Made by a program: the position numbers and the translations under genes
Virus record (IMG/VR): IMGVR_UViG_3300009164_004014
Span: 824-64,823 of that record
Strand: one strand, 5' to 3'
Origin: a virus
Lineage: Duplodnaviria > Caudoviricetes
DNA length: 64,000 bases
Part shown: positions 36,429-64,000 of the stretch, in pieces
How the letters are laid out: the number at the start of each line of letters is the position of its first letter
How positions within the stretch are numbered: position 1 is the first letter of the stretch
Notes under the pieces: generated by a model
Seen by the model: the letters and a program-made list of their open reading frames with translations, nothing else
Databases searched by the model: none
What the model was told of the DNA's origin: nothing

Positions 36429-36434
36429 TAAATA
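36429..36434 (+). promoter_or_regulatory. Late promoter TAAATA heading the glycosyltransferase / radical SAM operon
   Basis: Intergenic, followed by AGGAG SD and ATG 36451. Downstream genes overlap or abut through 48177. Confidence 0.6.
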
Positions 36435-36450
36435 CTTTTAGGAGTACCAG

Positions 36451-36756
36451 ATGGATATCAAAAACTTACTTATAGAATCTAAGGCTAGATTTAATCACAA
36501 TTCAGCTAAAGCATATCTTGCAGAAAAATATAAATCAAAATTGATTGTAGCTGAACAAGGTGGGTTATGGAAAGCCAACCATGATACCATTGCATTCCTC
36601 AATAGCCTTTCATCTGACCAAATAGTTATTATTGACACATTTGATACACCAGTCAAAGTAAATCGTCAAGAACTATTAGAAAAACTTCAACAAGTATACG
36701 AAACTACTATGGAACAATGGTACGTTGAGTGGAAAGAACTTGAGAACAAGAGATGA
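36451..36756 (+). CDS. Hypothetical protein
   Basis: 101 aa with strong SD; ATGA overlap with the next gene. Confidence 0.75.
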   Translation: MDIKNLLIESKARFNHNSAKAYLAEKYKSKLIVAEQGGLWKANHDTIAFLNSLSSDQIVIIDTFDTPVKVNRQELLEKLQQVYETTMEQWYVEWKELENKR

Positions 36757-37565: not shown

Positions 37566-38316
37566 TAAGGGCTTTGTAATTATGGCACAAGGTGATGACT
37601 ATATAAAATGTGCCCGTGCATTAGAACTTAGCATCAAACGTGCTATGCCTGATGCCAATGTAACTATTATAACAACTGATATGTTACCGCACGGAGATCA
37701 ATGCTCTGATACATTTTGGAAATTACAAAACGATTGGCAAGTTTATGAAGCTAGCCCATATGAATATACAATCAAGTTAGAATCAGATATGTACATCCCA
37801 AGACCAATTGACTACTGGTTTGATTCATTAAAAGATAGAGATGTTGTTATTTGCACTAGAATAAAAGATTTTATGCAGGAAGATTCTGATGTTACTTTTT
37901 ATCGCAAATTTATAATTGATAACAAATTGCCCAATACATATAATGGTATTACATATTTTAAAAAATCTATTATTGCTCAACAATTTTTTGAAACAACTAA
38001 AAATATTTGGGAAAATTGGGAAGAAGTTCGCAGTACGTTACAGTGCAATGTAAATGAATTTGCTACTACCGATTGGGTATATGCAATTGCTTCACATATT
38101 ATGGGAGTAGAAAAAACCACATATCCTCAGTTTGAGCCAATGGCAATGGTTCATATGAAAAAATATATTAATAAGATTCCATCTGAAGATTGGACAGATA
38201 TCTTTACCTGTGAAATTCTACAGCACTCTATAAGAGTAAATACTATTCCTCAATTATATCCGTTTCATTATCATGTAAAACATTTTGCAAATACTATTTT
38301 GGAGACAGCCAAATGA
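37555..38316 (+). CDS. GT-A fold glycosyltransferase-like protein (paralogue of previous gene)
   Basis: KGFVIMAQ..VTIITTD..YEASPYEYTIKLESDM (ExD variant)..TDWVYAIA. Confidence 0.6.
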   Translation: MESNKGFVIMAQGDDYIKCARALELSIKRAMPDANVTIITTDMLPHGDQCSDTFWKLQNDWQVYEASPYEYTIKLESDMYIPRPIDYWFDSLKDRDVVICTRIKDFMQEDSDVTFYRKFIIDNKLPNTYNGITYFKKSIIAQQFFETTKNIWENWEEVRSTLQCNVNEFATTDWVYAIASHIMGVEKTTYPQFEPMAMVHMKKYINKIPSEDWTDIFTCEILQHSIRVNTIPQLYPFHYHVKHFANTILETAK

Positions 38317-38657
38317 TTAATGATGAAGAAAAATATATAATTATTTGGGAACCTCCCGTATTAGAAAAGCCTGAATTTAGACTATATTATGATGACTTAG
38401 GCAAGATTATATGTTATACTGGAGAGAAGTTAGAAGGAAACTATATTGTAGTTGATGCTATGACCTTTGCTGAAAGTAGGCAAGATATTAGAGTAATTGA
38501 TGGTAGAATTGTTAAAGATTCTTCTAATGCAACTATAGTTAGATTAACGCCGAGTGATTTCGGACATTTATGTGCAACAGAAGACCTAAGTATTATCGTA
38601 ACTAATGATGATGCGATTGAAAAACAATATTGGAAATTAACAGTTTATGAGTTTTGA
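38313..38657 (+). CDS. Hypothetical protein
   Basis: 114 aa, overlapping both neighbours in the operon. Confidence 0.7.
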   Translation: MINDEEKYIIIWEPPVLEKPEFRLYYDDLGKIICYTGEKLEGNYIVVDAMTFAESRQDIRVIDGRIVKDSSNATIVRLTPSDFGHLCATEDLSIIVTNDDAIEKQYWKLTVYEF

Positions 38658-39600
38658 TAATATTGTTGACGTGGCAGATTTAGATTGTATCTATCTAAGC
38701 TATGATGAGCCTCAAAAAGAAGAATTTTGGCTTAAGATAAAGAATATGATTCCATGGGCCAAGCGTGTTGATAGTGTTAAAGGTAGTGATGCTGCACATA
38801 AAGCAGCGGGTCTAGCTAGTGACACAGAACGATTCATTCTAATCGACGGTGACAACATGCCAGAAGAAAGTTTCTTCAACATGCAATTAGACTTCACTGA
38901 CAAAGACCCTAAATATAAATTAGCACAATATCGTTGGAAAGCTGTGAATAGTATTAACGGATTGCGTTACGGCAACGGCGGCATGAGTAGTTGGACTAAA
39001 ACTTATGTTGCCAACATGCAAACTCACGAAAATCAAAAAAACGGCGATGTAGCACGTATTGCTGATTTCTGTATGGATGGCAAAGATAACTTATACTGGG
39101 CAATGCATGATTGTTATTCTATTACTTATCCTAATTATACTCCGTTTCAAGCGTGGCGTGCTGGATTCCGTGAAGGAGTAAAGATGGTTCTTGATAAAGG
39201 TGCAAGACCTGATATCAATACATTTAAAGAAACTGTTGCTAGTCGCAACTTAAACAACTTAACTATATGGCACAATGTTGGTAGTGATGTTGAAAATGGA
39301 TTGTGGGCTATCTATGGCGCACGATTAGGCACATACATGACTATGCTAACTGATTGGGAACATACCAATGTTCAATGGTTTGATAACTATATAGTATTGT
39401 GGGAAGAACAAGAATACAGAGACCCAAAAATTGAAGCAGAGTCTATTGGATCAGCATTAAGTGATAAACTTGGGTTACCTATGTGTACATTAAGTAGTGA
39501 ACAAAGCAAATTCTTCAAACGTCACTATAATGCAGACAAATATAATTTGGGCCCACTCGTAACTGAGATGGATGTTATTCGTAGAATAGAAGGTTGGTAA
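38647..39600 (+). CDS. Glycosyltransferase-like protein (GT2-like, DxD)
   Basis: DCIYLSYDEP..RVDSVKGSDAAHKAA..FILIDGDN..QAWRAGFREGVKM. Confidence 0.6.
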   Translation: MSFDNIVDVADLDCIYLSYDEPQKEEFWLKIKNMIPWAKRVDSVKGSDAAHKAAGLASDTERFILIDGDNMPEESFFNMQLDFTDKDPKYKLAQYRWKAVNSINGLRYGNGGMSSWTKTYVANMQTHENQKNGDVARIADFCMDGKDNLYWAMHDCYSITYPNYTPFQAWRAGFREGVKMVLDKGARPDINTFKETVASRNLNNLTIWHNVGSDVENGLWAIYGARLGTYMTMLTDWEHTNVQWFDNYIVLWEEQEYRDPKIEAESIGSALSDKLGLPMCTLSSEQSKFFKRHYNADKYNLGPLVTEMDVIRRIEGW

Positions 39601-42244: not shown

Positions 42245-42245
42245 T

Positions 42246-44713: not shown

Positions 44714-44715
44714 AA

Positions 44716-45993
44716 ATGCAAGATCCCTTAGTAATAGAAAATTTAGTAAAGCACGGTAAACATTTCTGTGTGCTACCTTGGGTACATTTCCATTCATGGC
44801 CCGACGGTAAAGTAATGCCCTGCTGTATTGCAGACAGTGACATGCCGGTCGCAAACATTAATAATAATGAATCTATTATTCAGATGATGAATAGTGATGA
44901 ATATAAAAAAATACGTGCCGGTATGTTAATTGATGAGCCAGTGGCAACTTGTAAACGGTGTTATGACTTAGAATTAATGGGCACATGGACAATGCGTCAA
45001 AGTCATAATATGCGTAGAGGACTTGAATATGTTGATATGATTTCAAAGAATACAGAAAATGATGGTACATTATCTGAATTTCAAATGAAATACATGGATT
45101 TGCGTTTTAGTAACATGTGTAATATGAAATGTCGTAGTTGCGGCCCGGGTTGCAGTAGTCTATGGGCACAAGAATATGTTGATGAAAAAGGTTTAGGGGA
45201 ATACGAAAAATATTTTCATACTAAAAAAATTATAGTCAATACTGCTGAAGAAATGAGTTTTATGAGTAAATTAAAACCCTATCTCAAAGACGTATTAGAA
45301 GTTTACTTTGCCGGCGGAGAAATAATTATCACTCCTGAACATTACGAATGTTTAGATTACTGGATTGAGAACGGACTTACTGACCAAGTTGAATTAACAT
45401 ATACTACTAATTTTAGTTCATTAAAATACAAAGACAAAGATTTAATTGGTTATTGGAAACAGTTTTCTCAATTAAAAATTTGGGCTAGCTTAGATGCTCA
45501 CGGTGATGTAGCAGAGATTATACGCAAGGGTTCAGATTGGGAACGTATTGTCAAAAACATTAAAACACTAAAAGAACAAGTACCGCATGCACAATTTCAA
45601 ATTACTCCAACGTTAAGTATTTGGAACGTATTTGATTTTCCTGACTTTTTTGATTATTTGATTAGTGAGGGATTGATTGATGACAAAACTACTAGCCCTA
45701 GATTTAATCTATTGACTAACCCATGGTATGCAAACATTATGATATTACCCGTGTCAGTTAAGCGAAGATTAATAGAATTATATCGTGTATATGCAGATAG
45801 ATATGAAAATGTTAATACTGAGTTACACAATGGTTTTAAAATGATCATTTATAATCTAAGTGTTGGTGATGAGAATAAGGGTGGCATATTAGAATTTAAA
45901 AAATTCAATGAGCAAATAGATGAATATAGAAATGAAAAAATAGAAGATATCATCCCAGAACTTAAAGAGGTTTATCAGTGGGCAGAAAGTTAA
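44716..45993 (+). CDS. Twitch-domain radical SAM protein (5 of 6)
   Basis: FCVLPW..PCC..CKRC; CNMKCRSC; YFAGGE. Confidence 0.9.
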   Translation: MQDPLVIENLVKHGKHFCVLPWVHFHSWPDGKVMPCCIADSDMPVANINNNESIIQMMNSDEYKKIRAGMLIDEPVATCKRCYDLELMGTWTMRQSHNMRRGLEYVDMISKNTENDGTLSEFQMKYMDLRFSNMCNMKCRSCGPGCSSLWAQEYVDEKGLGEYEKYFHTKKIIVNTAEEMSFMSKLKPYLKDVLEVYFAGGEIIITPEHYECLDYWIENGLTDQVELTYTTNFSSLKYKDKDLIGYWKQFSQLKIWASLDAHGDVAEIIRKGSDWERIVKNIKTLKEQVPHAQFQITPTLSIWNVFDFPDFFDYLISEGLIDDKTTSPRFNLLTNPWYANIMILPVSVKRRLIELYRVYADRYENVNTELHNGFKMIIYNLSVGDENKGGILEFKKFNEQIDEYRNEKIEDIIPELKEVYQWAES

Positions 45994-46955
45994 TAGCCAT
46001 TCAGGCCCCAGAGCCTTACCTAGCAGTTACATGGCAGGTGAACAATTATTGTAACTTTAAATGTAGTTATTGTAATCCGGGTAATTGGGGAGGAACTGAC
46101 GTTAATGATGGCAATACTGATTTATATATTCGCAATCTAGAAACAATAATCAATCGTTATAAAGAAGTTGGATATAAAAATTTTAAGTTCTTTTTTAGTG
46201 GTGGAGAACCAACTGCATGGCGCAATTTTATTCCAATTTGTGAATGGTTGTATAATGAGTTACCCCAAGCCACCTTGGCAGTTAACACTAATCTAAGTCG
46301 TCCATTAAAATGGTGGGAAAAGAATCACTATCTATTTGATGATGTAGTTGCTAGTTTTCACGTAGAGTTTGCAGACAAACAACGTTATGAAGAAAACAGT
46401 ATATATCTATGTGATAAGGTAAACTACTTAGCAACTAAGATGCTATTACATGAAGAAAGATTCTGGGAAGTGGTGGAGTTTGGGAAATATTTAAAAACAG
46501 TCATGCCAAATTATTTTTTAGAATGGACACCGTTGTTTGATGAAATGAGTGTTAACACGGGACCATGGTCATATAAAGATCCAGCAAAGACTCAGTTTAT
46601 CAACGATTGCACTAGTGAGCACTATCAATCAAAACCAAAACCAAATAAAAGAACTAGATTTACGGTAAGTTACAATAAGTATGATGATAATCATTTTGAA
46701 GTCTGTAACAGCAATGAATTAATTGTCGCTGGTAATAATTTTTTCAGTGGCTGGAACTGTAATGTTGGCGATGCAATTTTTATTAGCCCAATTGGCGACA
46801 TGAGTTTAGCAAGTTGCGGTATGGGAGGTAGAGTTGGTCATATACTAACAGATATTTCTCGTGTTGGACCCAAACAAATTGTATGTAAAAAAGAACATTG
46901 CCATTGCGGAACTGATATTATTATTCCAAAATTTATAAAAAATGACAATACTTAA
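45978..46955 (+). CDS. Radical SAM protein with C-terminal Cys-rich (SPASM-like) domain (6 of 6)
   Basis: CNFKCSYC near the N-terminus, FSGGEPT, and C-terminal WNC..ASC..CKKEHCHC. Confidence 0.88.
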   Translation: MGRKLIAIQAPEPYLAVTWQVNNYCNFKCSYCNPGNWGGTDVNDGNTDLYIRNLETIINRYKEVGYKNFKFFFSGGEPTAWRNFIPICEWLYNELPQATLAVNTNLSRPLKWWEKNHYLFDDVVASFHVEFADKQRYEENSIYLCDKVNYLATKMLLHEERFWEVVEFGKYLKTVMPNYFLEWTPLFDEMSVNTGPWSYKDPAKTQFINDCTSEHYQSKPKPNKRTRFTVSYNKYDDNHFEVCNSNELIVAGNNFFSGWNCNVGDAIFISPIGDMSLASCGMGGRVGHILTDISRVGPKQIVCKKEHCHCGTDIIIPKFIKNDNT

Positions 46956-50746: not shown

Positions 50747-50753
50747 AATGATT

Positions 50754-50785: not shown

Positions 50786-50792
50786 ATGTACT

Positions 50793-51911: not shown

Positions 51912-51912
51912 T

Positions 51913-52725: not shown

Positions 52726-52747
52726 ATAAGAAAAAACAAAAAAATTC

Positions 52748-54685
52748 CTACTTCATTGAATTAATATCTTGAGTAATAATAGTTTTACCAAAATTACGCT
52801 TTCTACCAAAATACATATTTTCTAAAAATCTATCTAGGCTAATATCTTTACTTTCGTGAAAATCAAAATTATATCTTACATTAGTTTCTAATTTGGTATT
52901 ATCTATAATGTATCCAAGAAAGTCATAGTCAAATTCTACCGTATACGGAAACTTTGAAATATCATCATAATTTATCACATAGTTCTTTTGTAACAATAAT
53001 AACTGTTTTAAACAATTGCTCTCTAAATCAAATTCGTTAGTTACAAATCGTTCTATCAAATCAAAAACATATTCGTATCGTCTATCCTTGTGCATTTGCA
53101 GAGTAGTTCTGTGTATAAGATTCCATCCATGGATTTCAATATTACTAATATTAGAGTGGTTGATCTTACCTAATGTAATCCAATTTCTATAATACATACG
53201 AACAGCATCTCTTTCTTCTATAAACCACGAATCCTCAATGAGGTACTTCCATAACTTTTCATAGAACACAGAGTAGTCTATACCTGCTTTTTTGTGTAAG
53301 AATCTACTGATATATGTAGTAAGGCCATTAATATGAAACGTCTGCATAAACCAACTGAATATTTGACTATCTAGCATTTCTTCTACAGACATATCTTTGG
53401 TGCTAGTAACTACATTTACACATTCTTCTAACTCATGATAGTTATAACTGCCGCTCATATAATCGTAAACAGGTACACTGGTAATTTTGTACAGTTTTTC
53501 TTGTAGTAGATTCATTTCGGCATTTTCTAACATCTGTGCTTGCAGAATATTAATGCCTGTATGATTACCGGCACGAAAAATCTTGTAGAAACCTTCCTTC
53601 CAACTTGCAACGGTTTCACCGGGCAAGCCTAAAATAATTTCAGTGTACACCGGTACATTGTTTTTATCGCACAATGCAAAAATATTTTCAATTTTATGTT
53701 GTGCAAGGTTCTTGCGTTTGATATTCTCTAGTACATCTAAGTCCATGCTTTGTACACTAACAGTGAGCCCTTGATTAAACTTGGGATTTTTAATTAATTT
53801 GAATATAATATCAAACACTTCTGGCTTTTGATCCTTGGCCCATGTCATACTAAAACTGTTAGGATAACCGTACTTCTCTTGTACTTCAATTAGTTTATCT
53901 GCAATAGCATTATCACGTTCAACAAACATACCAAAGTTAGCATCAGCAACAGTAACAAACCCACATCCTTTCTTACCAATCCATTCTAATTCTGCAAATA
54001 CTTTTTCTAAACCAAATTTTTTAACCTTGTTATAGGTTAAGCTGCCCCAATCACAGAATGTACAAGCATATGGACATCCTCGATTAGTCTCGATAGTTGC
54101 GTTCCACTCTATATCAGTTACTTCACGCATGATCTTGTCAAAGACTCCTGTAAGATAAGGACTAGGTAAGTTTTTTAAATTGCTAATGCGGTCGCCGCTG
54201 CCGGTATCTACTGCTACTCCGTCTTTGTTAATTAATAATCCTTTGATATCAAACCAAGCAGTGTTGTCTGAAATTGCGTCTAACAGTTGTCGTAGTATTA
54301 GTTCACCTTCTGATTTAATAACAACATCTATGAAGGGCAACTTTTTAAATATATCTTTCTTTGTTATTGGCATTTCTGGGCCACCAAAAAATATTATACA
54401 GTTGGGATTACGTTCCTTTACCTTACGTGCTAAGGTATAATTATAATTCTTGTTCCATACATAGGTACTAAATCCCACAATGTTGCATTGAGATAGTTTA
54501 GTAACAGTATCCTCAATGTTGTCTCTGCGCCATATCAAATCTTCTAATTGGTAATTAGATTTAATTGAATCAAATTGATTAACATATGCCCATAACACTC
54601 CTATGCTATATGGCAAATAGTGTGCATTGTATTCTTTTGGGCCTTGTTGAAAATTGGGCTGAACAAAGCTAATTTTTTTATTCAT
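52748..54685 (-). CDS. Cobalamin-binding (class B-like) radical SAM enzyme
   Basis: LPYSIG..VGFSTYVWN..FGGPE..ETNRGCPYACTFCDWG..DANFG..ILGLPGET. True start probably ATG 54685 (MNKKISF). Confidence 0.88.
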   Translation of the reverse strand: MNKKISFVQPNFQQGPKEYNAHYLPYSIGVLWAYVNQFDSIKSNYQLEDLIWRRDNIEDTVTKLSQCNIVGFSTYVWNKNYNYTLARKVKERNPNCIIFFGGPEMPITKKDIFKKLPFIDVVIKSEGELILRQLLDAISDNTAWFDIKGLLINKDGVAVDTGSGDRISNLKNLPSPYLTGVFDKIMREVTDIEWNATIETNRGCPYACTFCDWGSLTYNKVKKFGLEKVFAELEWIGKKGCGFVTVADANFGMFVERDNAIADKLIEVQEKYGYPNSFSMTWAKDQKPEVFDIIFKLIKNPKFNQGLTVSVQSMDLDVLENIKRKNLAQHKIENIFALCDKNNVPVYTEIILGLPGETVASWKEGFYKIFRAGNHTGINILQAQMLENAEMNLLQEKLYKITSVPVYDYMSGSYNYHELEECVNVVTSTKDMSVEEMLDSQIFSWFMQTFHINGLTTYISRFLHKKAGIDYSVFYEKLWKYLIEDSWFIEERDAVRMYYRNWITLGKINHSNISNIEIHGWNLIHRTTLQMHKDRRYEYVFDLIERFVTNEFDLESNCLKQLLLLQKNYVINYDDISKFPYTVEFDYDFLGYIIDNTKLETNVRYNFDFHESKDISLDRFLENMYFGRKRNFGKTIITQDINSMK

Positions 54686-54689
54686 TGAG

Positions 54690-54753
54690 TATTTAATCAA
54701 TTTTTTTTCACAGAGCATTAAATTTTTGGCACCATTGATACTTTAGTTAAATA
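54690..54753. promoter_or_regulatory. Divergent late promoters (TAAATA minus 54690-54695, 4 nt before ATG 54685; plus 54748-54753)
   Basis: Minus strand TAAATA-ctca-ATG; plus strand TAAATA followed by AAGGA SD and ATG 54777. Confidence 0.55.
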
Positions 54754-54776
54754 TATTATTAAAATAAGGATTGTAA

Positions 54777-57170
54777 ATGAAAACAGTAGCAATGATAGGC
54801 GTGGGTAAGTTAGGACAAGATTGTGCTGAAGTAATGGCAGCGGCTGGTTATGACGTAGTGGGTTATGATGTAGAACCAAGAACTCCCGAATTTCCCATGT
54901 GCAATACAATACAAGAAGCAGTAAAAGATAGAGACTTTATTTTCATTGCGGCTCCTACTCCGCACGACTCAATGTACGGTGGGGAAACTCCAACTAGTCA
55001 TTTACCAAATAAAGATTTTGATTATACTATTGTAACAAATATTCTTAATGAGGTTAATTTATACGTAAACAAAAGTCAATTAGTTATATTAATAAGCACA
55101 GTATTACCCGGGACAGTTCGTAATCAGTTGGAACCGTGCATCACCAATGCACGTTTCATTTATAATCCTTACTTGATTGCAATGGGAACAATTAAATGGG
55201 ATATGGTTAATCCAGAAATGGTTATTATTGGAACAGAGAGTGGTAGTTTAACAGGTGATGCAAAAGAATTGATTGATTTCTACAAAGTGTTTATGGAGAA
55301 TGACCCTAGGTATGAAGTTGGTACATGGGATGAAGCTGAGTCAATTAAGATTTTCTATAACACATTTATTAGTACTAAACTAGCATTGGTAAACATGATA
55401 CAAGATGTAGCCGAGACTAATGGAAATATCAATGTAGATGTGGTAACAACAGCATTAGCAAAAAGTACGTATCGCATTATGGGTCCAATGTATATGAAAG
55501 CTGCGTTTGGAGATGCAGGTGCATGTCATCCTAGAGATAATATTGCATTGCGTTATCTTGCCGATAGGTTAGATTTGGGGTACGATTTATTTGATAGTAT
55601 AATGACAGCCCGTGAAGTACAAGCAGAGCGTATGGCATTGCGTTGTTTAAAAAACGGAAAAAATGTTACTATCATCGGTAAGGCGTATAAACCAGGAGTA
55701 CCCTATACCAATGGCAGTGCTAGTATGTTAGTGGGATATTATATTGAAAAACATGGCGGAAACGTAAATTATTATGATGAGAATACCAAAGATTTAGATT
55801 TAAAATTAAGTTGGACAGAAGTATATTTAATTGGTTATTGGGAAGATTGGGTATATTCTTTAATGCCAATAATAGGTCATCAACAACGATCAGTAGTAAT
55901 AATAGATCCATGGCGGAATCCTAAGTATAATGATCCAATGGAAAAGATAATGTATGGTAATACTAGACCAACTTTTAATTTTGGTGTACTCCCTAACGAC
56001 TTAGAACATTGGAAAATTGGGGCCGAGAAAAATGTAATTGAATTGTTTCCTAAAATTGAAAAATACAAAGATATTATACATATAATTGATGCTGAAGTGG
56101 GTCCTACTAATTTTGGAATGAGGCCCACGGAACTCATTGTAGAAGAAATGATGGAAGCCAAACGTAATGGAAAAACTAAATTTTTATTCTATAATTTAGC
56201 TGAAGGTTATTTAAACAATGTAGTAGAGAAAATTCATCGTATTGCAAATATAGTTGAAAATCAGATAGATTCAAAAGATATATTTTATTTGTGTGCTTCT
56301 CCGGGTTCGGAAAAAACTTATGAAAATATATTTAACATTAAAAATTTAACAAAAACAAATTGGAAAAATAAAATTTCAATATTAGCAACTGCATCTTTTC
56401 AGTATTTTGTTCAACACAATGGCGCGGGGCAATTTAAAGATGTTGTGTATACAGTTAAAGAAAAACCCAAAAAGTTTTTATGTTTTAACAAATTGCCCCG
56501 CGCACATAGAGTTAAATTAATTGAAAAATTTTTAGAACATGATATATTAGATGAAGGTTTTTATTCGTTTTTACCAATGAATGGGATGGATACTAAAGAT
56601 TTTTCATGGATAGATACATTACCAGACACATTTGTGAATGTAAAAGCAAATAAAGATAAATTTCCATTAAAATTAAATTTAAGCCCTCACCGAAGTATGA
56701 ATCCATCGATGTTAGATATAGAAGATTTACCTTGCTTTGATGATAGTTATTTTAGTATAGTTACGGAAACTACTTTTTATTCTAATAGAACAAAACATTC
56801 TGATTCTTTTAATAAATTTCAACGACATGCTACTTTAGATGATATTTTTATAACTGAAAAAACTTTTAAGTGCATCCCTGCAATGCACCCGTTTATAATA
56901 TTTTCATATCCGGGAATACTGTCTGCATTAAGAACTCTTGGATATAAAACATTCTCTCCCATGATAGATGAAACATATGATACTATTATCAACGATGATG
57001 AAAGATTTAATGCTCTTTGGAATGAAATAACTAGATTATTACAAAAGACACCTGAAGAATGGATTCAGTGGCAGACCGAGATTAAGGAAATTGTTGAATA
57101 TAATAAAAATCATTTTTATTCTAACACAAATCATAATTCAACTAAAGACATTTCTCGTTTGTTTGAGTAA
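54777..57170 (+). CDS. UDP-glucose/GDP-mannose dehydrogenase family protein fused to a family-A GT-like domain
   Basis: N-terminal half: IGVGKLG, APTP, ISTVLPGT, YNPYLI, IKIFYNTFISTK, GDAGACHPRD, GKAYKP. C-terminal half: KKFLCFNK..HR..SYFSIVTET..ITEKTFK..HPF..GYKTFSP. Confidence 0.85.
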   Translation: MKTVAMIGVGKLGQDCAEVMAAAGYDVVGYDVEPRTPEFPMCNTIQEAVKDRDFIFIAAPTPHDSMYGGETPTSHLPNKDFDYTIVTNILNEVNLYVNKSQLVILISTVLPGTVRNQLEPCITNARFIYNPYLIAMGTIKWDMVNPEMVIIGTESGSLTGDAKELIDFYKVFMENDPRYEVGTWDEAESIKIFYNTFISTKLALVNMIQDVAETNGNINVDVVTTALAKSTYRIMGPMYMKAAFGDAGACHPRDNIALRYLADRLDLGYDLFDSIMTAREVQAERMALRCLKNGKNVTIIGKAYKPGVPYTNGSASMLVGYYIEKHGGNVNYYDENTKDLDLKLSWTEVYLIGYWEDWVYSLMPIIGHQQRSVVIIDPWRNPKYNDPMEKIMYGNTRPTFNFGVLPNDLEHWKIGAEKNVIELFPKIEKYKDIIHIIDAEVGPTNFGMRPTELIVEEMMEAKRNGKTKFLFYNLAEGYLNNVVEKIHRIANIVENQIDSKDIFYLCASPGSEKTYENIFNIKNLTKTNWKNKISILATASFQYFVQHNGAGQFKDVVYTVKEKPKKFLCFNKLPRAHRVKLIEKFLEHDILDEGFYSFLPMNGMDTKDFSWIDTLPDTFVNVKANKDKFPLKLNLSPHRSMNPSMLDIEDLPCFDDSYFSIVTETTFYSNRTKHSDSFNKFQRHATLDDIFITEKTFKCIPAMHPFIIFSYPGILSALRTLGYKTFSPMIDETYDTIINDDERFNALWNEITRLLQKTPEEWIQWQTEIKEIVEYNKNHFYSNTNHNSTKDISRLFE

Positions 57171-57200
57171 TAAATTATCTTTACCCCTTTGTAAAACTAT

Positions 57201-57206
57201 TAAATA
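57201..57206 (+). promoter_or_regulatory. Late promoter TAAATA
   Basis: TAAATAgtgtat, the same 12 nt as at 571. Confidence 0.55.
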
Positions 57207-57238
57207 GTGTATGAGAGAACATACACGGGAGATTACTT

Positions 57239-59476
57239 TTGGACTTTAATTTAAAATCACTTGCGGTAGATAAACTAGTACCAAAAGAAAAACCAACTGA
57301 AGATATAGCAGACGCACGCCATCGTAGCATGATGGAGGCAATAGCACCCTACGCTAAAAAAACAGTTCAAAAAAACTTAACTCCGGTATATGTGGATTAC
57401 AAAACACGAAAAACTAAATTAGTTTTAGTATTGTGTCCAGAATGGAGTCCCTATATGCCCCCATTTAGCCTTGCAAGATTAAGTGGAATAGCAAAAAGTT
57501 CAGGATATGAAACACACATTATGGACTTGAATGTTAAGGCATACAATGAATTTATGAATGATTGGTTGCCCAATAAAAAACTACCATTCAGATTATGGGA
57601 TCCTAGTAGTAGTTGGCACTGGTTAGGTGACACATATATGAATGATATTCATCCTGTGCTAGAACCTATACTTAGTAAAGCAGTAGATGACATTGTTGCA
57701 TTGAATCCTGAAGTCGTTGGGTTTAGTATATATTATATCAGTGAAGAACCTAGTAAATGGATGTGTCGTGAATTGAAGCGCAGACTCCCTAACGTGAAAA
57801 TAGTTGTAGGTGGACCAAATGTGCATAAGAGTTGGTTTAATATTGAACCTTATTATGATTATGTTGTAGTGGGTGAAGGTGAAGCAAACTTGTTAGTATT
57901 ATTAGAAGAAGTTGAAAATGGTGTAAATCACTCTAAACCAAAAGTATTAGATCAACCGGAAGATCAACGTATCAATATTAATGGCTTACCTATGCCAGAT
58001 TATGAATCTATCGACTTTAGCCAATACGAATTGCCCAACGGTATCAATACTGAGATTAGTAGAGGGTGTACAGCTAAGTGTACATTTTGTGAAGAAACAC
58101 ATTTTTGGAAATATCGTCAACGCCAAGCAGTTGACTTAATTGACGAAATTGAATGGCTTTATTATAATAAGGGAACAGATGTTATTTGGTTCATTGATAG
58201 CTTAGTTAACGGTAATTTGAAAGAACTCAGGGCATTTGCTAAGGGTGTTGCAGCAAAAGGACTAAAAATTAAATGGACAGGTTATGCCCGATGCGACGGT
58301 CGCATGGATTTAGAATATATGGAAGATTTAGCCGCCGGCGGCTGCATTATGTTCAATTATGGAATTGAATCCGGTAGTCAAAAAGTACTAGATGATATGG
58401 CAAAGGGTGTTACTATTGCCGAGATGGAACAAAACTTTATTGATGGAAAAAAAGTAGGTATATGGGCAGCAACAAACTGGATTGTTGGGTTCCCCACTGA
58501 AAACTTTCAAGACTACGCTGATAGTATGACATTGTTATGGCGTATGCGTAATAATAATATTAATAACGCCGGATTGGGTGTAGGGTATGGATTGGGGCCA
58601 GAAACAATTGTTGGTCAAAATCCACATAAGTTTAATATTAGTTGGCACAAGTATCAAGGGCATTGGATAACAAATGATTTTAAAATTGGCGGTACACATG
58701 TAATGATACGTGTTAAAACATTTCATATGTTTGCTGATTATTTAAGGGGATGCAGTGAAGTACCAATTAGTTATCCGATAAGAGTTAATTTGGCTAAAGA
58801 ACATTATAAGATTTTATTAAATAATCCTAAAAATATCAAAGAAGTTGAATATGAAAATTTTGACTACAATATAATTAAACCAAACATTAATCCTTTTGCT
58901 GATACTCTTGTAAACGAGATGTGGCCATTTTTTAGAATGTTGTGGAGAACTAGAGGCGGTTATAGATCAATAATTAAATTTAATCCTGAAATTGATTTAA
59001 AAGAGTTTGGTGGTCAATTTGGTCCCGGTATGTTCAATGCAGTATACAAATTTTCTATCACTGATGACGGCAAATGGCAAGCTGACTTTAATATTAACTT
59101 TGAGCAAGTAGATAATATATTTGATGATAGAGAGCCATCACGCAAGGGACCATTTTATGCACAAGACTATAGTAGATTGCAAAGCAACACGACCAAACGT
59201 GCTAGAAAATTAGCAAAACCAACATGGAGTGACGAGGATGGTCGTAGCGGTCAAGACTTTATGGATTTGCTTAATGAAGAAAAAATGCTAAATGAAACTA
59301 TTGATTTCTCATTTAAATTGCATTGGGTAGAATCAGGTGATTGGAGTAATTATGATGATTACAAAGTAAAAGTTTCTGATACTACAAGTGTCATTATACC
59401 CGAAAAAGAAGCAATGGATAAAACAGAATTTGTATCTATTGACATATCATCTATCAAAAAGAATAAAAATGACTAA
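57239..59476 (+). CDS. Cobalamin-binding radical SAM enzyme with C-terminal extension
   Basis: PPFSLARL..VVGFSIY..VVGGPN..GEGE..EISRGCTAKCTFC..GIESGSQKVL..IVGFPTE. TTG start with GGGAG SD. Confidence 0.88.
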   Translation: MDFNLKSLAVDKLVPKEKPTEDIADARHRSMMEAIAPYAKKTVQKNLTPVYVDYKTRKTKLVLVLCPEWSPYMPPFSLARLSGIAKSSGYETHIMDLNVKAYNEFMNDWLPNKKLPFRLWDPSSSWHWLGDTYMNDIHPVLEPILSKAVDDIVALNPEVVGFSIYYISEEPSKWMCRELKRRLPNVKIVVGGPNVHKSWFNIEPYYDYVVVGEGEANLLVLLEEVENGVNHSKPKVLDQPEDQRININGLPMPDYESIDFSQYELPNGINTEISRGCTAKCTFCEETHFWKYRQRQAVDLIDEIEWLYYNKGTDVIWFIDSLVNGNLKELRAFAKGVAAKGLKIKWTGYARCDGRMDLEYMEDLAAGGCIMFNYGIESGSQKVLDDMAKGVTIAEMEQNFIDGKKVGIWAATNWIVGFPTENFQDYADSMTLLWRMRNNNINNAGLGVGYGLGPETIVGQNPHKFNISWHKYQGHWITNDFKIGGTHVMIRVKTFHMFADYLRGCSEVPISYPIRVNLAKEHYKILLNNPKNIKEVEYENFDYNIIKPNINPFADTLVNEMWPFFRMLWRTRGGYRSIIKFNPEIDLKEFGGQFGPGMFNAVYKFSITDDGKWQADFNINFEQVDNIFDDREPSRKGPFYAQDYSRLQSNTTKRARKLAKPTWSDEDGRSGQDFMDLLNEEKMLNETIDFSFKLHWVESGDWSNYDDYKVKVSDTTSVIIPEKEAMDKTEFVSIDISSIKKNKND

Positions 59477-60221
59477 AAAAAAGATAATGTTAATTGCAGG
59501 GTGCAGCCATTCTTCAGGTTCAGAAATAGATGGTAGCCAAGACTCTGCATATAATAGACAACATTCATTTGGTAATGTATTAGCAATTAAAATGGGATAC
59601 ACGCCTGTTAATATAGCAGAGCCCGGCTCTACTAATCCTTCAATTGCAAGAAGTGTTTTACAATGGTTCAGTGAAAAGTATGATAGTGAATCCATGGAAG
59701 TTTTTGTATTAGTAAGTTGGACTGATAGTTCTAGAATGGAAGTGCCGTGGGAAGGAAAAACATGGTATGGAGATCACAATCCGTTTAACGACTATTATGC
59801 TAGTACTGGTGAAGATTACGTTCGTATAAATTTAGGATGGCCTGGTGGAAATGCAGAAGAAAAAATATTTATTGCAGAATATCAAAAATTTATGGTCAAA
59901 AACGAAACGTATTTAGAGATAGTAAGTGCCAATTTAATATTACAATTACAATATTTTTTTAAATCAAAGGACATTAATTATTTAATGTGTAATTCTTCTC
60001 ATATGTTTGATAAAAGAAATATACACACCAATTTTTACCTAAATCAAATTGATACTACTAAATATTACAATATAGAAGATATTGAGCAGTCTTTTTATAT
60101 AAAATACAAAAATGCAGGATATACTAATCCAAAAGCAAAATATTGGCATCACAACGAAACTCCACATCAATTATATGCTGATGAGTTGTATAACTTTATA
60201 GAGGTAAACAAATGTTTATAG
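59469..60221 (+). CDS. SGNH/GDSL-like hydrolase or acyltransferase
   Basis: AGCSHSSG, NIAEPGSTN, WTDSSR, WHHNETPH. Start taken at ATG 59469. Confidence 0.6.
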   Translation: MTKKKIMLIAGCSHSSGSEIDGSQDSAYNRQHSFGNVLAIKMGYTPVNIAEPGSTNPSIARSVLQWFSEKYDSESMEVFVLVSWTDSSRMEVPWEGKTWYGDHNPFNDYYASTGEDYVRINLGWPGGNAEEKIFIAEYQKFMVKNETYLEIVSANLILQLQYFFKSKDINYLMCNSSHMFDKRNIHTNFYLNQIDTTKYYNIEDIEQSFYIKYKNAGYTNPKAKYWHHNETPHQLYADELYNFIEVNKCL

Positions 60222-60310
60222 TAAGATGGTTTAAAAATTTAGTCAGAGAATATAAATACCGCAAACGTTTAAAAGAACTACGCAAGCGTGATCCATTTAT
60301 TTACAAATGA
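60212..60310 (+). CDS. 32-aa basic microprotein ending DPFIYK (below ORF-track cutoff)
   Basis: MFIVRWFKNLVREYKYRKRLKELRKRDPFIYK*. GAGG SD at 60201; ATGA overlap with the carbamoyltransferase start. Confidence 0.75.
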   Translation: MFIVRWFKNLVREYKYRKRLKELRKRDPFIYK

Positions 60311-61788
60311 ATTATATTGGTATTTCGGCTGGATTCCATGACGCGGCAATAAGCGTTGTAGATGATTATGGCAATATATTGTTTGCTGGACATAGTGAAC
60401 GATATAGTAAAAACAAACATGACAAAGATGTTTGTAAAGAATTATTAATAGATGCTCTAAAACATACTAATTCGGCTTATTTACAATATCATTACTACGA
60501 ACGTCCTTGGTTAAAGTCATTGCGTCAATTACGCAGTGGTGAAGGCTTTAGTTGGCCGTCTTGGGAAAAGATACTAGGTTCTACTTATCATCAGATGGGT
60601 ACTCCTAAAATTTACACACATGGGCATCATCTATGTCATGCTGCCGCTGGCTTTCAAACAAGTAGTTTTCAAGATGCTACTATAGTAGTCATTGATGCCA
60701 TTGGTGAGTTTGACACTGTTACTATATGGGATGCTTGGTATGATTTTTCAACGGGCAAAGCAGAATATCAAAAACTATGGAGTATGCGATACCCAGATAG
60801 CATTGGACTATTCTATTCAGCAATGACTGAACGAGTTGGACTACGCCCACTTGATGAAGAATATATACTAATGGGTATGGCAGCATACGGCGAACCAGTT
60901 CACCTTCAAGAAATGATTACTGAGTTTGTAGATAATAAAGATATATTTACGTTCAAACAAAATCTACACACTGGAGTTGATAAAGATTTCTTACACGATG
61001 CTAATCCAATGAACATTGCCAGTAGTACTCAATATCTAGTAGAACATATGATTACTAGAGTAATGAGTAAAGCTAGAACATTAGGTCGTAGTAAAAATTT
61101 AGTATACGGCGGTGGTGTAGCATTGAATTGTTTAGCTAATAGATTATTAGGAAATTTCTATGAGAATATTTGGATCATGCCTAACCCAGGCGATGCGGGC
61201 AATAGTCTTGGTGCGGCAGCATTGGGATACGGTTGTAAAGTTAATTGGACTAATGCATATCTTGGTAGTAATATTGCTGGCAATTATCCTGTTAATTCCC
61301 TGCTCGATGTTTTGCTCTCTGATAAAATTGTCGGTGTTGCGTCGGGAAGAGCTGAATTTGGTCCAAGAGCATTGGGCAACAGAAGTTTATTAGCAGACCC
61401 TAGGGGTGATGAGATAAAAGATAAAGTAAATGAGATTAAACGCAGACAAAAGTTTAGACCTTTTGCCCCTGTTATCTTAGAAGAATATGCTGATCAATAT
61501 TTTGAAATGCCTAAACACTGGCATGATAGCAGATATATGCAAGTGATTAGTAAGTGTAAGTACCCTGAGAAATTTCCTGCTATTGTACACCATGATTGGA
61601 CTAGTCGTGTTCAAACTGTTCCAAAAGATGGATCAGGAATTAGAGAACTATTAGAGAAATGGTATGTGTTGACTGAATGCCCAATGTTACTAAACACAAG
61701 TTTAAACATACGTGGCGAGCCAATGGTCAATGATAGAGATGATGCTGATAGATTTGAAAAACTATATGGGGTTAAAGTTTTATCATAA
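60307..61788 (+). CDS. O-carbamoyltransferase, NodU/CmcH/TobZ family
   Basis: GFHDAA, HSERYS..KHD, HHLCHAA, DAIGE, MGMAAYG, GGVALNC, GDAG, EFGPRALGNRS, FRPFAP, SRVQTV, LNTSLN. Confidence 0.93.
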   Translation: MNYIGISAGFHDAAISVVDDYGNILFAGHSERYSKNKHDKDVCKELLIDALKHTNSAYLQYHYYERPWLKSLRQLRSGEGFSWPSWEKILGSTYHQMGTPKIYTHGHHLCHAAAGFQTSSFQDATIVVIDAIGEFDTVTIWDAWYDFSTGKAEYQKLWSMRYPDSIGLFYSAMTERVGLRPLDEEYILMGMAAYGEPVHLQEMITEFVDNKDIFTFKQNLHTGVDKDFLHDANPMNIASSTQYLVEHMITRVMSKARTLGRSKNLVYGGGVALNCLANRLLGNFYENIWIMPNPGDAGNSLGAAALGYGCKVNWTNAYLGSNIAGNYPVNSLLDVLLSDKIVGVASGRAEFGPRALGNRSLLADPRGDEIKDKVNEIKRRQKFRPFAPVILEEYADQYFEMPKHWHDSRYMQVISKCKYPEKFPAIVHHDWTSRVQTVPKDGSGIRELLEKWYVLTECPMLLNTSLNIRGEPMVNDRDDADRFEKLYGVKVLS

Positions 61789-61796
61789 GTAATTAA

Positions 61797-64000
61797 ATGC
61801 TAAGAGATGTATTTTATTACGGTAATAAACCTAACGTTCACCCAAGAGAAAAATTTGCAGCTTCATTAGAAGATGCTAGAAATCAATGCACAACTAAACA
61901 TTTTTGGATAATCAACGAATACTGTGATTATACTAATTTTGATTGGGATTGGGATTTTGAATTTCTACCCGATGAAGATGTTTGGGCAGAAGAACACAAC
62001 AATGTATGGCCTAGTCAACACCAAAAAGATAGCGGAACTTGGCTATGCAATACAACTAATAATCAACCACTGACAGTGTATCGGGCTGATGTTAATGCCA
62101 TTAAACGTAAAAACATCACTTCAGATAATTGGGTTATTCTATCCCCTATAGACAATCTTAAATTTGACTTTAGCTGGCACCCAGATCCAACTGACCCTCC
62201 GTATATTTATGTATGGGGTAATCAATGGCATTCTGGCAAAGTTATGTCTACAATTGAGTATCATGTATTTGGTGCAACATCAATCAAATATGTTGAAAAT
62301 AATATTGCTATACTTGCACAACAACCTAAAAACTTTGATGTGTTTGAAGAAGTATCAGACTTTGATTTTAGTTGGGTCCCAAATCCAACCAGCCCGCCGT
62401 ATATTTACGTTTGGGGGAATCAATGGAATACTCCAGAAGATGCGATATCTATTCAATATGTTGTTGAGGGTGCAAAAGAATACAAATATATGCAACAACG
62501 TGCAATTCGTAAACCGTGTAAAGATAATTGGCACATACCCACTGACGTTGATGTAAATGCGTTTGATTTTAGTTGGGTGCCTTCACCGCATGATGAGCCG
62601 TTCATATATCAGTTTGGAACACAATGGCACGACAGGGGTGGACCAAGATATGTACCCGAATCTATCGTTAGATTATCATCCGGTGAACCAATTGGACAGA
62701 TTAAGTATGTAACCGATATTGTTGCTACATTAATTCAAAATAAAGCTAGATGGATTATACCTAATAATATTGATACTAGTGATTTTGACTTTAGCTGGGT
62801 GCCTCATCCAGATGAACAACCGTATATACATCAGTTTGGAACTCAATGGCAAAAGACAGGTGGACCTCAGTATATTGCTCCAGAGATTGTTAAATTATCA
62901 AATGATAATTATTTAGGTCCAGTTAAGTATATTGATATTCAAACAGCAAAAAAATTACCAAGTAAAACTGATTTTAATATATTAGATGACAACGTTATAG
63001 ATGATTTTGATTATTCATGGCACCCAGATGACACAGAGCCTCCCTACATATATGTATTTGGTAATAATCAATATCCTGCACAAATAATGCCAACAGTTGA
63101 ATATGTAGTCAAAGGTGCGACTCAAGTTAAACACATGCATAATATAGTTGCTACTTTGGGTGTAAATAAAACCAATTGGGTCATACACCAACCTATTGAC
63201 GAAACTAAATTTAACTTAAGTTGGGTACCCAACCCCAAATCCCCTCCTTACATATATGTTTGGGGCAATAAGTATATTGAAGCAATATTAAAACCTACTG
63301 TAGAATATGTTGTGCCGGGTGCAACTGAATACAAGTACATGGAAAAACTGGTAGAAGTTACCCCTGAATGGGACAAGTGGATAGAAGTTCAAGTAGTAGA
63401 TAAAACTAAATTTGATTTTACATGGAGACCTGATCCACGTGAACCTGCATACATTTACACTTGGGGAAACAAGTACATTGCTGGTGAATTAATTCCGACA
63501 CTTGAATATCATTGCGAAGATGCAACTGAACGAAAATATATGAGCGATGATGTTTGTGTGTTACCCGAATTTAATAAATGGGTGATACCTTCTAACATTG
63601 ATGATAGTTCATTTGATTATACTTGGAGACCTGATCCACGTGAACCTGCCTTTATCTATCAATTTGGTACACAATGGCAAAAGACAGGTGGACCAAGATA
63701 CGTATGTGAAGATGCAACCGAAATAAAATATCTGGATAATCAAAAAGTTAAAATATTACCAAATAAAGAAAATTGGACAGTACCTACTAACATAGATATT
63801 AGTGAGTTTGATTTTAGTTGGCATCCAGACGATACAAGTCCGCCGTATATTTATAGATTTGCTACTCAGTGGGCAATGAGTGGAGGTCCTGTTTATATAG
63901 TACCTGATGCTATAGAGGTTAAATATATAGATGCTACAAAGGCTATAGCTTTATCCAATCGTGCAAATTGGGAAATAGGTGAATACATTGATGCTGATAG
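61797..64000 (+). CDS. Long W/P/Y-rich repeat protein (over 734 aa, runs off right edge; absent from ORF track)
   Basis: Manual translation MLRDVFYYGNKPNVHPREKF... is open to the window end. Preceded by TAAGTA (61786), a possible late-promoter variant. Confidence 0.85.
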   Translation, partial: MLRDVFYYGNKPNVHPREKFAASLEDARNQCTTKHFWIINEYCDYTNFDWDWDFEFLPDEDVWAEEHNNVWPSQHQKDSGTWLCNTTNNQPLTVYRADVNAIKRKNITSDNWVILSPIDNLKFDFSWHPDPTDPPYIYVWGNQWHSGKVMSTIEYHVFGATSIKYVENNIAILAQQPKNFDVFEEVSDFDFSWVPNPTSPPYIYVWGNQWNTPEDAISIQYVVEGAKEYKYMQQRAIRKPCKDNWHIPTDVDVNAFDFSWVPSPHDEPFIYQFGTQWHDRGGPRYVPESIVRLSSGEPIGQIKYVTDIVATLIQNKARWIIPNNIDTSDFDFSWVPHPDEQPYIHQFGTQWQKTGGPQYIAPEIVKLSNDNYLGPVKYIDIQTAKKLPSKTDFNILDDNVIDDFDYSWHPDDTEPPYIYVFGNNQYPAQIMPTVEYVVKGATQVKHMHNIVATLGVNKTNWVIHQPIDETKFNLSWVPNPKSPPYIYVWGNKYIEAILKPTVEYVVPGATEYKYMEKLVEVTPEWDKWIEVQVVDKTKFDFTWRPDPREPAYIYTWGNKYIAGELIPTLEYHCEDATERKYMSDDVCVLPEFNKWVIPSNIDDSSFDYTWRPDPREPAFIYQFGTQWQKTGGPRYVCEDATEIKYLDNQKVKILPNKENWTVPTNIDISEFDFSWHPDDTSPPYIYRFATQWAMSGGPVYIVPDAIEVKYIDATKAIALSNRANWEIGEYIDAD
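62163..64000 (+). repeat. At least 9 diverged copies of a 65-74-aa unit, F[DN][FYL][ST]WxPxxxxPx[YF]I[YH]x[WF]G..
   Basis: Units begin at about 62163, 62361, 62562, 62784, 63006, 63210, 63411, 63612 and 63807. Confidence 0.9.

Follow-up and report, generated by a model that had tools for sequence, protein, structure and literature searches.

The stretch of DNA considered here, 64,000 nucleotides in length and referred to below as the window, comprises positions 824 to 64,823 of the IMG/VR virus record IMGVR_UViG_3300009164_004014, nearly the whole of a 64.8-kb virus contig. Directly behind two tail fiber genes it carries an island of about 25 kb (window positions 36451-61788) that very probably encodes a phage pathway for the synthesis of sugar nucleotides and of a glycan. 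The island combines eight radical S-adenosylmethionine (rSAM) enzymes with enzymes of nucleotide-sugar metabolism, glycosyltransferase (GT)-like proteins and an O-carbamoyltransferase. An earlier reading of the same DNA, made from its letters without database searches (the sequence-only reading), had proposed such a pathway for some 27 kb behind the fiber genes; almost all of the enzymes that it listed are present, with the labels GT-A and SGNH holding at the level of fold or motif only, and the proposed link of a glycan pathway to the fiber genes is supported by the enzyme families, by synteny and by the sugar cassettes of related phages. Whether the glycan is placed on the virion itself is a question on which we are evenly divided; attachment to tail proteins rests on gene position, on the presumed timing of expression and on the lack of membrane and export proteins.

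Gene content of the island

The 23 proteins encoded in the island were scanned with Pfam, and a family was found in 13 and none in 10. The features of the island and its immediate borders are as follows (coordinates in the window, strand, description).

34184..36402, plus: two fiber genes immediately preceding the island (Pfam, composition, synteny)
36421..36450, plus: late-type promoter motif and ribosome-binding site, with TAAATA at 36429-36434, 22 nt before the ATG
36451..36756, plus: first island gene, 101 amino acids (aa); nearest named Atlas cluster DUF4376 at 0.89, a lead only
36753-37565 and 37555-38316, plus: two paralogous GT-A/GT8-like proteins (hhalign 99.6%; weak glycogenin matches)
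38313..38657, plus: 114-aa protein, no family match, present in 27 of 75 loci
38647..39600, plus: GT-A-fold protein (residues 6-186) with a helical C-terminal half (model pLDDT 75.4)
39594-40994, 40961-42244, 42246-43484, 43481-44713 and 44716-45993, plus: five N-terminal-twitch rSAM enzymes (NF033640)
45978..46955, plus: sixth rSAM enzyme, with a Cys-rich C-terminal extension (PF04055)
46942..48177, plus: GT-B-fold GT-like paralog 1, 40% identical to 50793-51911, fold taken from the family
48174..50746, minus: branched-sugar cassette of a 116-aa open reading frame (ORF), a TylC3-type nucleoside diphosphate (NDP)-hexose C-methyltransferase (48517-49731) and an RmlB-like 4,6-dehydratase (49715-50746) (Pfam, NCBIfam)
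50793..51911, plus: GT-B-fold GT-like paralog 2, the protein modeled (predicted structure)
51913..52725, plus: SGNH-like protein (GCS ... GGGN ... DxH; invariant columns G-C-S, G..G-N, D..H)
52748..54718, minus: B12-binding rSAM enzyme, class B, KedN5-like (PF02310 and PF04055)
54777..57170, plus: NDP-sugar dehydrogenase (residues 1-345; PF03721, PF00984) fused to GT-B paralog 3 (residues 561-785); TAAATA at 54748
57239..59476, plus: second B12-binding rSAM enzyme (PF02310 and PF04055); TAAATA at 57201
59469..60221, plus: second SGNH-like protein (GCSH ... PG..N ... HH, from the alignment); ATG 59469 is the likely start of ORF 59388-60221
60212..60310, plus: gene of a 32-aa basic peptide, its stop overlapping the start codon of the carbamoyltransferase gene
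60307..61788, plus: NodU/CmcH-family O-carbamoyltransferase
61797..64000, plus: giant protein of ~67-aa Trp/Pro/Tyr-rich repeats, start only, continuing past the contig end

Fiber gene A (34184-35431) encodes a C-terminal Peptidase_G2/IMC domain (PF11962), and fiber gene B (35443-36402) is Ser/Thr/Asn-rich by composition.

Radical SAM enzymes

The count of eight rSAM enzymes in the sequence-only reading is correct, with five members of family NF033640 (N_Twi_rSAM), a sixth Cys-rich enzyme and two that bind B12. The five tandem proteins score 306.8, 368.1, 362.5, 369.5 and 364.5 bits on the NF033640 model, 1.8-2.2 times its curated cut-off of 170. In four of the five, Pfam detects SPASM over residues 16-96, followed by Radical_SAM starting near residue 126, and in all five C16, C35, C76 and C79, followed by C131, C135 and C138, are invariant, the SPASM/twitch Cys region thereby lying N-terminal to the CX3CX2C core. 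While this N-terminal Cys cluster ahead of the core is what the five proteins share with NF033640, their occurrence as five tandem paralogs in a phage glycan island is a distinct context. The family is named, and our literature search found neither a paper carrying the accession NF033640 nor a reported function. The sixth enzyme scores 30 bits on the same model and is therefore not a member of the family; its CX3CX2C motif (C25, C29, C32) and residues C261, C280, C303, C308 and C310 are conserved in 11 aligned sequences. The minus-strand and plus-strand B12-binding enzymes reach, respectively, 32.6 and 43.4 bits on PF02310 (cut-off 32.1) and 41.4 and 59.1 bits on PF04055 (cut-off 29.5). The minus-strand enzyme also matches NF033712 (KedN5) over residues 24-402, but its 252.8 bits fall short of the cut-off of 700; it is similar to this subfamily but not a member of it. 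Scores on models of rSAM enzymes from antibiotic pathways stay well short of the cut-offs (BlsE, 19 bits against 400; AprD4, 30 against 500).

The solved structures closest to the N-twitch rSAM core are those of viperin (E 9.5e-5, core only) and MoaA, both of which bind nucleotides, and this agrees with nucleotide-linked substrates. The N-twitch region gives weak NCBIfam matches to the DynA, StsB and GeoRSP models (E 1e-5 to 1e-3). Together with the many peptide maturases among rSAM enzymes with auxiliary clusters and the giant repetitive structural proteins on both sides of the island, these matches would suit a division of labor in which the rSAM enzymes act on protein, cross-linking, epimerizing or hardening the fiber or repeat proteins, and the sugar enzymes have a separate function. 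We give this possibility little credence: the core is nearest viperin and MoaA, the rSAM genes are interspersed among the transferase genes, are translationally coupled to them (overlapping ORF ends) and travel with sugar cassettes in the relatives, and no recognizable precursor or RRE gene was found.

Nucleotide-sugar enzymes and the carbamoyltransferase

The sequence-only reading had also named RmlB, an NDP-sugar C-methyltransferase, a nucleotide-sugar dehydrogenase and an O-carbamoyltransferase, and Pfam, PHROG and NCBIfam confirm all four within the score limits given here. The dehydratase exceeds the cut-offs of PF16363 (178.8 bits) and PF01370 (167.9 bits) and reaches 242.3 bits on TIGR01181, under the equivalog cut-off of 365.1, and is accordingly described as an RmlB-like NDP-sugar 4,6-dehydratase of undefined nucleotide specificity. 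The neighboring C-methyltransferase is above the cut-offs of PF08421 (63.5 bits), PF13489 (70.2 bits) and PF08484 (92.8 bits). From these predicted activities, the product of the minus-strand cassette should be a 3-C-methyl-branched 6-deoxy sugar. In the dehydrogenase, the N-terminal and central domains score 59.2 and 54 bits, over their cut-offs, and phrog_9148 matches residues 3-345 with E 2.8e-96; TIGR03026 gives 135.1 bits against a cut-off of 189.8, and the C-terminal domain model is not among the matches listed. The fusion of this dehydrogenase to a GT-B domain suggests that a uronic acid may be passed directly to the transferase. The carbamoyltransferase is over the cut-offs of PF16861 (163.7 bits) and PF02543 (120.7 bits) and matches phrog_1601 with E 1.5e-93; on the NodU equivalog model it scores 130.6 bits against a cut-off of 1000, so that it is not NodU itself.

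In antibiotic pathways, sugars are tailored by rSAM enzymes such as BtrN, DesII, AprD4 and BlsE and by class B enzymes of the GenK, Fom3 and KedN5 types. The island resembles these pathways in that twitch and B12-binding rSAM enzymes stand beside NDP-sugar dehydratases, C-methyltransferases and carbamoyltransferases, but differs from them in the position of the twitch domain of its N_Twi enzymes, which is N-terminal and not C-terminal, and in BlsE, AprD4 and KedN5 scores far under the cut-offs. An antibiotic-sugar-like set that includes a TylC3-type C-methyltransferase, class B and twitch rSAM enzymes and a carbamoyltransferase would be at home in the synthesis of a free or peptide-linked natural product, either a diffusible aminoglycoside- or nucleoside-like compound or a modified small conserved peptide, for which the conserved 32-aa peptide gene, translationally coupled to the carbamoyltransferase gene, would be a candidate. 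Twitch/SPASM enzymes, according to reviews, are often peptide-acting. Such a product is nonetheless quite improbable, given six GT-like domains that indicate an oligosaccharide on an acceptor, the lack in the island of any export or self-resistance gene or membrane protein, and the conserved linkage to the fiber genes.

Glycosyltransferase-like proteins

The three GT-like domains that had been taken for paralogs (46942-48177, 50793-51911 and residues 561-785 of 54777-57170) are true paralogs with a GT-B fold. The model of 50793-51911, built on 15 homologs, has a pLDDT of 88.6 and a pTM of 0.87. Foldseek matched it to OtsA, glycogen synthase and SdgB with E ~3e-5 and probability 1.0; there were 104 PDB matches at E <= 0.001, and the matches listed are all GT-B enzymes. 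Structure comparison with VIA gave Z scores of 10.7-9.2 over 240-280 residues, with tied rows for the T4 enzymes BGT and AGT, TarM, an alpha-1,3-fucosyltransferase and GtfC, and because these rows are tied, the fold does not resolve the CAZy family or the acceptor of the GT-B proteins. Profile searches of the GT-A-fold and GT-B families against PDB sequences gave nothing meaningful, which made the comparison of folds necessary.

As to the three further proteins that had been called GT-A-like, the label stands at the level of fold or motif, and Pfam gives a GT name to none of them. The sole outside matches of the two paralogs 36753-37565 and 37555-38316 are weak ones to glycogenin(-1) (E 0.03-0.9); a DxD motif (D93, D95) occupies invariant columns in 36753-37565. 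In the GT-A-fold protein 38647-39600, D67 and D69 (DxD) are invariant, and Foldseek finds BcsA, HAS, WrtF and PBCV-1 A64R at E ~1e-4; there are also viral GT-A matches, and VIA gives Z 9.3-7.5 over ~140 residues, tied with nucleotidyltransferases. The family of this protein has at least 8000 unnamed metagenomic relatives.

Since the GT-B model fits T4 BGT and AGT (Z 10.7 and 10.3) as well as any GT-B enzyme, it also fits DNA hypermodification, in which the transferases would glycosylate modified bases of the phage and the other enzymes would tailor the sugars so attached; phage DNA glycans are reportedly known (Pyle et al. 2024, as cited in PMC12619734). The DNA-modification genes of T4 are pre-replicative, and the late-type promoter and the structural-module position of the island are unlike them. 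The sequence-only reading had remarked that the window contains no thymidylate synthase homolog. There is indeed no PF00303 match among the window ORFs scanned, but the observation is an artifact of the contig end, which coincides with the end of the window (position 64,000): in G001, a collinear relative described below, genes for DHFR and ThyA lie ~8 kb past the end of the island. Three relatives (95%, 92% and 58% complete according to CheckV) contain a single PF00303 homolog each (351-360 bits) and no second, hydroxymethylase-like copy, and the PF00303 gene of G001 adjoins DHFR, as expected of a true thymidylate synthase. Taken together, these points make DNA a highly improbable target.

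SGNH-like proteins, small genes and the giant repeat protein

Two SGNH proteins had been proposed, and what upholds them is the motif blocks expected of SGNH/GDSL hydrolases (I, GxSx; III, GxN; V, DxxH) and their mutual relatedness (hhalign 88% between 51913-52725 and 59388-60221), without Pfam or PDB support; the second matches DUF6071 with E 0.0058, below the cut-off. The 32-aa peptide is identical to its counterpart in G001 at 27 of 32 residues, the DNA differing synonymously. The G001 gene of this peptide has a TAAATA motif and a ribosome-binding site upstream.

The repeat protein at the right end of the window shows 10 motif matches, of which nine units were aligned, within 734 aa. Matching open frames of 1444-2312 aa occur in three relatives, and 521 long relatives (1286-3670 aa) were found, all unnamed. 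No Pfam family, phage-database or Atlas match was obtained for it, the only PDB profile match is to a PKD domain (E 0.65), and by profile comparison its repeats have no relationship to the GT-A-fold family. The island thus lies between the fiber genes and a second giant repetitive protein, which could serve as a fiber, as a decoration protein or as the glycan's acceptor.

Promoter motif and timing of expression

A late-type promoter motif had been predicted ahead of the island, and this prediction is supported: all 25 of the close relatives compared retain the motif, and the left end of the window encodes a gp55-like late sigma factor.

3..506, minus: gp55-like late sigma factor (phrog_12791, 'sigma factor for late transcription', E 2.1e-15); the ORF continues past the window start

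In the 753 nt of intergenic DNA, TAAATA occurs 16 times (both orientations) against 3.2 +/- 1.7 in shuffled sequences, none of 2000 shuffles reaching 16, and its density there is ~14 times that in the rest of the window. It heads baseplate and fiber genes as well as the units of the island. Upstream of orthologs at least 50% identical to the first island gene, TAAATA and a flanking block are kept in all 25 distinct regions, mostly at -21/-22, whereas the surrounding flanks vary; the motif also precedes 33 of 39 fiber-gene orthologs. The T4-type late element is the 8-mer TATAAATA, with no -35 element, and its full form is absent from the heads of the island units, the enriched and conserved part being the TAAATA core. 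No excess of sigma-70-like sites was seen in positions 46000-64000 (106 against 100.9 +/- 11.1 in shuffles). From the motif and the sigma factor we infer that the island is expressed late.

The six TAAATA sites that had been placed at the heads of transcription units did not fare equally. Those at 36429, 54748 and 57201 lie 22-38 nt before an ATG and those at 50754 and 50780 lie 7 nt from their ATGs, while the site at 54690 was misplaced, falling inside ORF 52748-54718 (minus) if the first ATG of this ORF is taken as the start; relative to the second ATG, it lies 5 nt upstream. The divergent pair within 50747-50792 recurs in G001 at 46338-46381, 5-7 nt from the starts, even though the minus-strand gene differs, and for this reason the two sites are perhaps real but unusual; they may give rise to leaderless or very short-leader late transcripts. 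A perfect TATAAATA at 60251 was considered as a late promoter of the carbamoyltransferase gene and dropped, as it lies inside the conserved 32-aa ORF and shows synonymous differences in G001.

Conservation of the island and its variable cassettes

The rSAM paralogs have at least 613 relatives in IMG/VR, and 75 IMG/VR loci were kept for comparison. For synteny, 48 loci were used that have an ortholog of 39594-40994 and at least 6.5 kb of upstream DNA. Upstream of this ortholog, the GT-A-fold gene is present in 48 of 48 loci and each GT8-like gene in 43, fiber gene B in 33 and fiber gene A in 25; 13 loci carry neither fiber gene at 40% coverage or more. The GT/rSAM block behind fiber genes is seen again in IMG/VR contigs and also in a single cultured phage, Ralstonia phage RsoM2USA, which is the sole carrier of the core among 50,697 GenBank phage records. 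The order in RsoM2USA is a fiber-like ORF355, two GT8-like genes, two copies of the GT-A-fold gene and an rSAM gene. Its authors assigned ten virion gel bands to ORFs, including the neighboring ORF356 and the giant ORF361. Among the structural genes of this phage (locus L135), ORF358 (9585-10562), annotated as hypothetical, encodes an epimerase/dehydratase-like protein of the short-chain dehydrogenase/reductase (SDR) type, 25% identical to the RmlB-like protein.

The closest comparison is offered by G001, a 335-kb relative (95% complete, CheckV) that is collinear with the window from the baseplate through the island to the repeat protein. Its cassettes have been exchanged in part: there is no KedN5-like rSAM gene, a different SDR gene replaces the RmlB-like one, and a DegT fragment and a GT-B gene are added. 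Downstream of the repeat protein follow AAA, DUF2201, DHFR, thymidylate synthase and terminase genes. In the table of relatives' loci, L001 and L002 are the only ones with a match to the C-methyltransferase, and the RmlB-like dehydratase has no match in these two loci and only 24-28% matches in 11 others. Accessory genes of the relatives fall into 62 clusters in all; 36 of the 37 seen in at least two loci were scanned (all but one 123-aa cluster), and a Pfam family was found in 13. Within the island, these families comprise epimerase/dehydratases, DegT aminotransferase, RmlC, an E1-type thiamine diphosphate enzyme, FkbM methyltransferase, KDO8P synthase, NeuB, a 2-oxoglutarate oxygenase and another rSAM enzyme. 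Such a variable, sugar-only repertoire of predicted functions is the pattern of a glycan locus.

Cellular homologs of the rSAM enzymes were found in 48 loci, mostly from metagenome-assembled genomes (MAGs) of Bdellovibrionota and Flavobacteriales. The island's GT8-like and GT-B genes are missing from all 48 loci, and the GT-A-fold gene is matched, weakly (27-31%), in two of them. Neighborhoods were scanned for 7 of 10 chosen loci (all but L099, L100 and L108), covering 96 of 133 listed ORFs. One locus, L121, a gammaproteobacterial MAG contig, contains at ~3000-17000 at least eight rSAM genes, several with an N-terminal SPASM, beside a PNP_UDP_1 phosphorylase gene; this array belongs either to a mis-binned virus or to a cell, in which case it would be the counterpart of the phage arrays.

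Proposed pathway and its acceptor

In no protein of the island does a 19-residue window reach a Kyte-Doolittle value of 1.6, and hence flippases, polymerases, exporters and membrane-embedded initiating transferases are all missing from the island. All-soluble proteins, the dehydrogenase-GT-B fusion, the branched-sugar cassette and the viperin/MoaA-like core lead us to propose that unusual sugars are made, joined and edited by this pathway in the cytoplasm, late in infection. In its full form, as a late-expressed soluble pathway that makes, assembles and edits unusual sugars as part of the tail-fiber module, with a structural protein as acceptor, this proposal could equally turn out to be right or wrong. 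The chemical steps below, like the timing and the acceptor, are extrapolated from gene content, paralogy, folds, synteny and the promoter motif. The dehydrogenase would oxidize host UDP- or dTDP-hexoses to a uronic acid, to be taken directly by the fused GT-B domain, and other hexoses would be 4,6-dehydrated and C-methylated to a branched 6-deoxy sugar. The three GT-A-like and three GT-B-like transferases would then assemble a chain, which would be tailored by the six twitch-type and two B12-binding rSAM enzymes, the carbamoyltransferase and the two SGNH-like proteins; the reactions would include radical C-methylation, redox, epimerization or dehydration, O-carbamoylation, and addition or removal of acyl groups. 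The acceptor would be one or more structural proteins of the phage, either the fibers ahead of the island or the giant repeat protein behind it.

The chain could instead end on the host envelope, with lipopolysaccharide (LPS) O-chain, capsule or another surface glycan being altered in a way that blocks superinfection or the sticking of progeny to debris. We consider this unlikely, in view of the absence of any membrane segment, flippase, polymerase or exporter from the island, of the early need for exclusion, which fits poorly with a late-type motif, and of the fixed place of the island in the structural module of what is a jumbo phage of lytic type. On the other side, two island proteins are weakly GT8-like, and one cellular homolog (L103) adjoins genes for a nucleotidyltransferase, two GT2 enzymes and a polysaccharide deacetylase.

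Several observations count against a late pathway directed at the virion. LPS-core GT8 enzymes are peripheral proteins without membrane segments, so that the lack of such segments is compatible with a lipid-linked acceptor. The T4 DNA glucosyltransferases BGT and AGT stand tied at the head of the GT-B list, with the Z scores given above, and fold matches of predicted structures are uninformative on the acceptor. Of the six promoter sites first noted, three sit 5-7 nt from an ATG or within an ORF, and in six distant relatives (L017, L019, L038, L039, L040 and L041) a near-consensus TTGACA-N17-TATAAT/TATACT and no TAAATA precedes the first island gene; expression of the island may be timed differently from one lineage to another. 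The contexts of the cellular homologs are mixed, one of the seven scanned loci being clearly sugar-related. In Vibrio phage K566 (L136), an N-twitch-like rSAM cluster is located far from the fiber genes. The virion analysis of RsoM2USA, as far as its gel data go, is limited to the ten major bands. Finally, for a similar pelagimyophage island with GT8, UDP-glucose 6-dehydrogenase and rSAM genes, the sections of PMC7029224 on that island favor modification of the O-chain.

As a separate observation, the K566 cluster (12473-22767) consists of three annotated rSAM genes, 21% identical to the N-twitch paralogs, and hypothetical genes, with small genes and NAD-salvage genes nearby.

Beyond the virion-directed pathway itself, the N-twitch rSAM enzymes might form a new glycan-editing class, active on nucleotide sugars or on a chain already attached to the fibers or the repeat protein. 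Sugars that are branched through C-C bonds, epimerized or deoxygenated, and possibly cross-linked to protein, would then build, by radical chemistry, a "glycan armor" on virions, abundant in fresh waters, that neither hosts nor competitors would be able to hydrolyze or recognize. We put this forward tentatively, as a possibility that has more against it than for it.

Source phage and genomic context

The source is, judging by a comparison of gp6, a giant, uncultured phage of fresh water, a RaK2/121Q-like jumbo myovirus of lytic type: the gp6 homolog is 32-35% identical to gp6 of 121Q, Serratia BF, Yersinia fHe-Yen9-04, Agrobacterium Atu_ph07 and Sinorhizobium Phosso. Positions 33401-43400 were matched in the 20 sequencing runs listed, in each case as DNA contigs and with no RNA run among them, under the labels freshwater, lake-water or unspecified metagenome. 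A megablast search with 23.6 kb of the island against the 50,697 phage records gave no match, and a tRNA scan found no tRNA in the window. The left half of the window encodes gp53-, gp5-, gp25- and gp6-like baseplate proteins, and between gp6 and the fiber genes lies a very large ORF.

13511-33364, plus: single ORF of 6617 aa, Thr/Ser/Asn-rich

A Pfam scan of this ORF gave only a sub-threshold FG-GAP repeat; G001 has an ortholog of 6344 aa, and the counterpart in RsoM2USA is ORF361 (2541 aa).

The G+C content along the window is about 30-47%. The upper value belongs to the stretch 7814-9601 (plus), with 47% against 31-36% for most of the window, which encodes a 595-aa protein containing 22% Gly and 25% Ala, with a weak tape-measure-like PHROG match. 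Between the 6617-aa ORF and the gene at 33532-34152, a 50-aa ORF (33379-33531, plus) has ~30 C-terminal residues conserved in G001, and TAAATA stands 4 nt ahead of its ATG.

Relation to known systems

The glycosylation systems of mycobacteriophages and of PBCV-1 involve few transferases and ordinary sugars and have been proven by mass spectrometry. The island shares with them virus-encoded soluble transferases adjoining structural genes, and its GT-A-fold protein resembles the PBCV-1 capsid glycosyltransferase A64R (PDB 2p6w, 2p72; Foldseek E 1e-3, VIA Z 8.2). It differs in having six GT-like domains, eight rSAM enzymes and branched-sugar and carbamoyl chemistry, and in being known from its genes alone. 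Mycobacteriophage virion glycosylation is treated by Freeman et al. 2023, as cited in the text of PMC12619734. Neither that paper, on moraphages, nor PMC12801897, on cyanophage S-SCSM2R, deals with this island in its pertinent sections.

In a literature search on jumbo phages, radical SAM, nucleotide sugars, carbamoyltransferases and virion glycosylation, nothing closer was found than the host recognition cluster (HRC) of pelagimyophages and cyanomyophages (Zaragoza-Solas et al. 2020, PMC7029224), a variable fiber island described from metagenomes. According to the sections of that paper on the cluster, the HRC is likewise a variable island within the structural region and contains fibers, GT8, UDP-glucose 6-dehydrogenase and rSAM cassettes; the gene content of our island corresponds to that of an HRC. 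Its position does not: those sections place the HRC of T4-like phages (~150-200 kb) between VrlC and the neck gene gp14, whereas the island follows gp6 and the 6617-aa ORF. Analyses of rSAM subfamily, fold or promoter, as presented here, do not appear in the same sections.

Implications

On the evidence of its genes, the island would be a real variant of phage-encoded glycosylation, a conserved fiber-linked glycan island with an unusually large rSAM complement. Phage-encoded virion glycosylation has so far comprised a handful of cases with simple sugars, and here it would occupy ~25 kb in a widespread lineage of freshwater jumbo phages. Five of the eight rSAM enzymes belong to a named family without a known reaction, and these enzymes would add a radical chemistry of carbohydrates. 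Because one cultured phage, RsoM2USA, carries the core, the question is open to testing at the bench. If the product decorates the fibers, it would bear on host recognition, on how well virions withstand enzymes and grazers, and on the evolution of variable phage surfaces.

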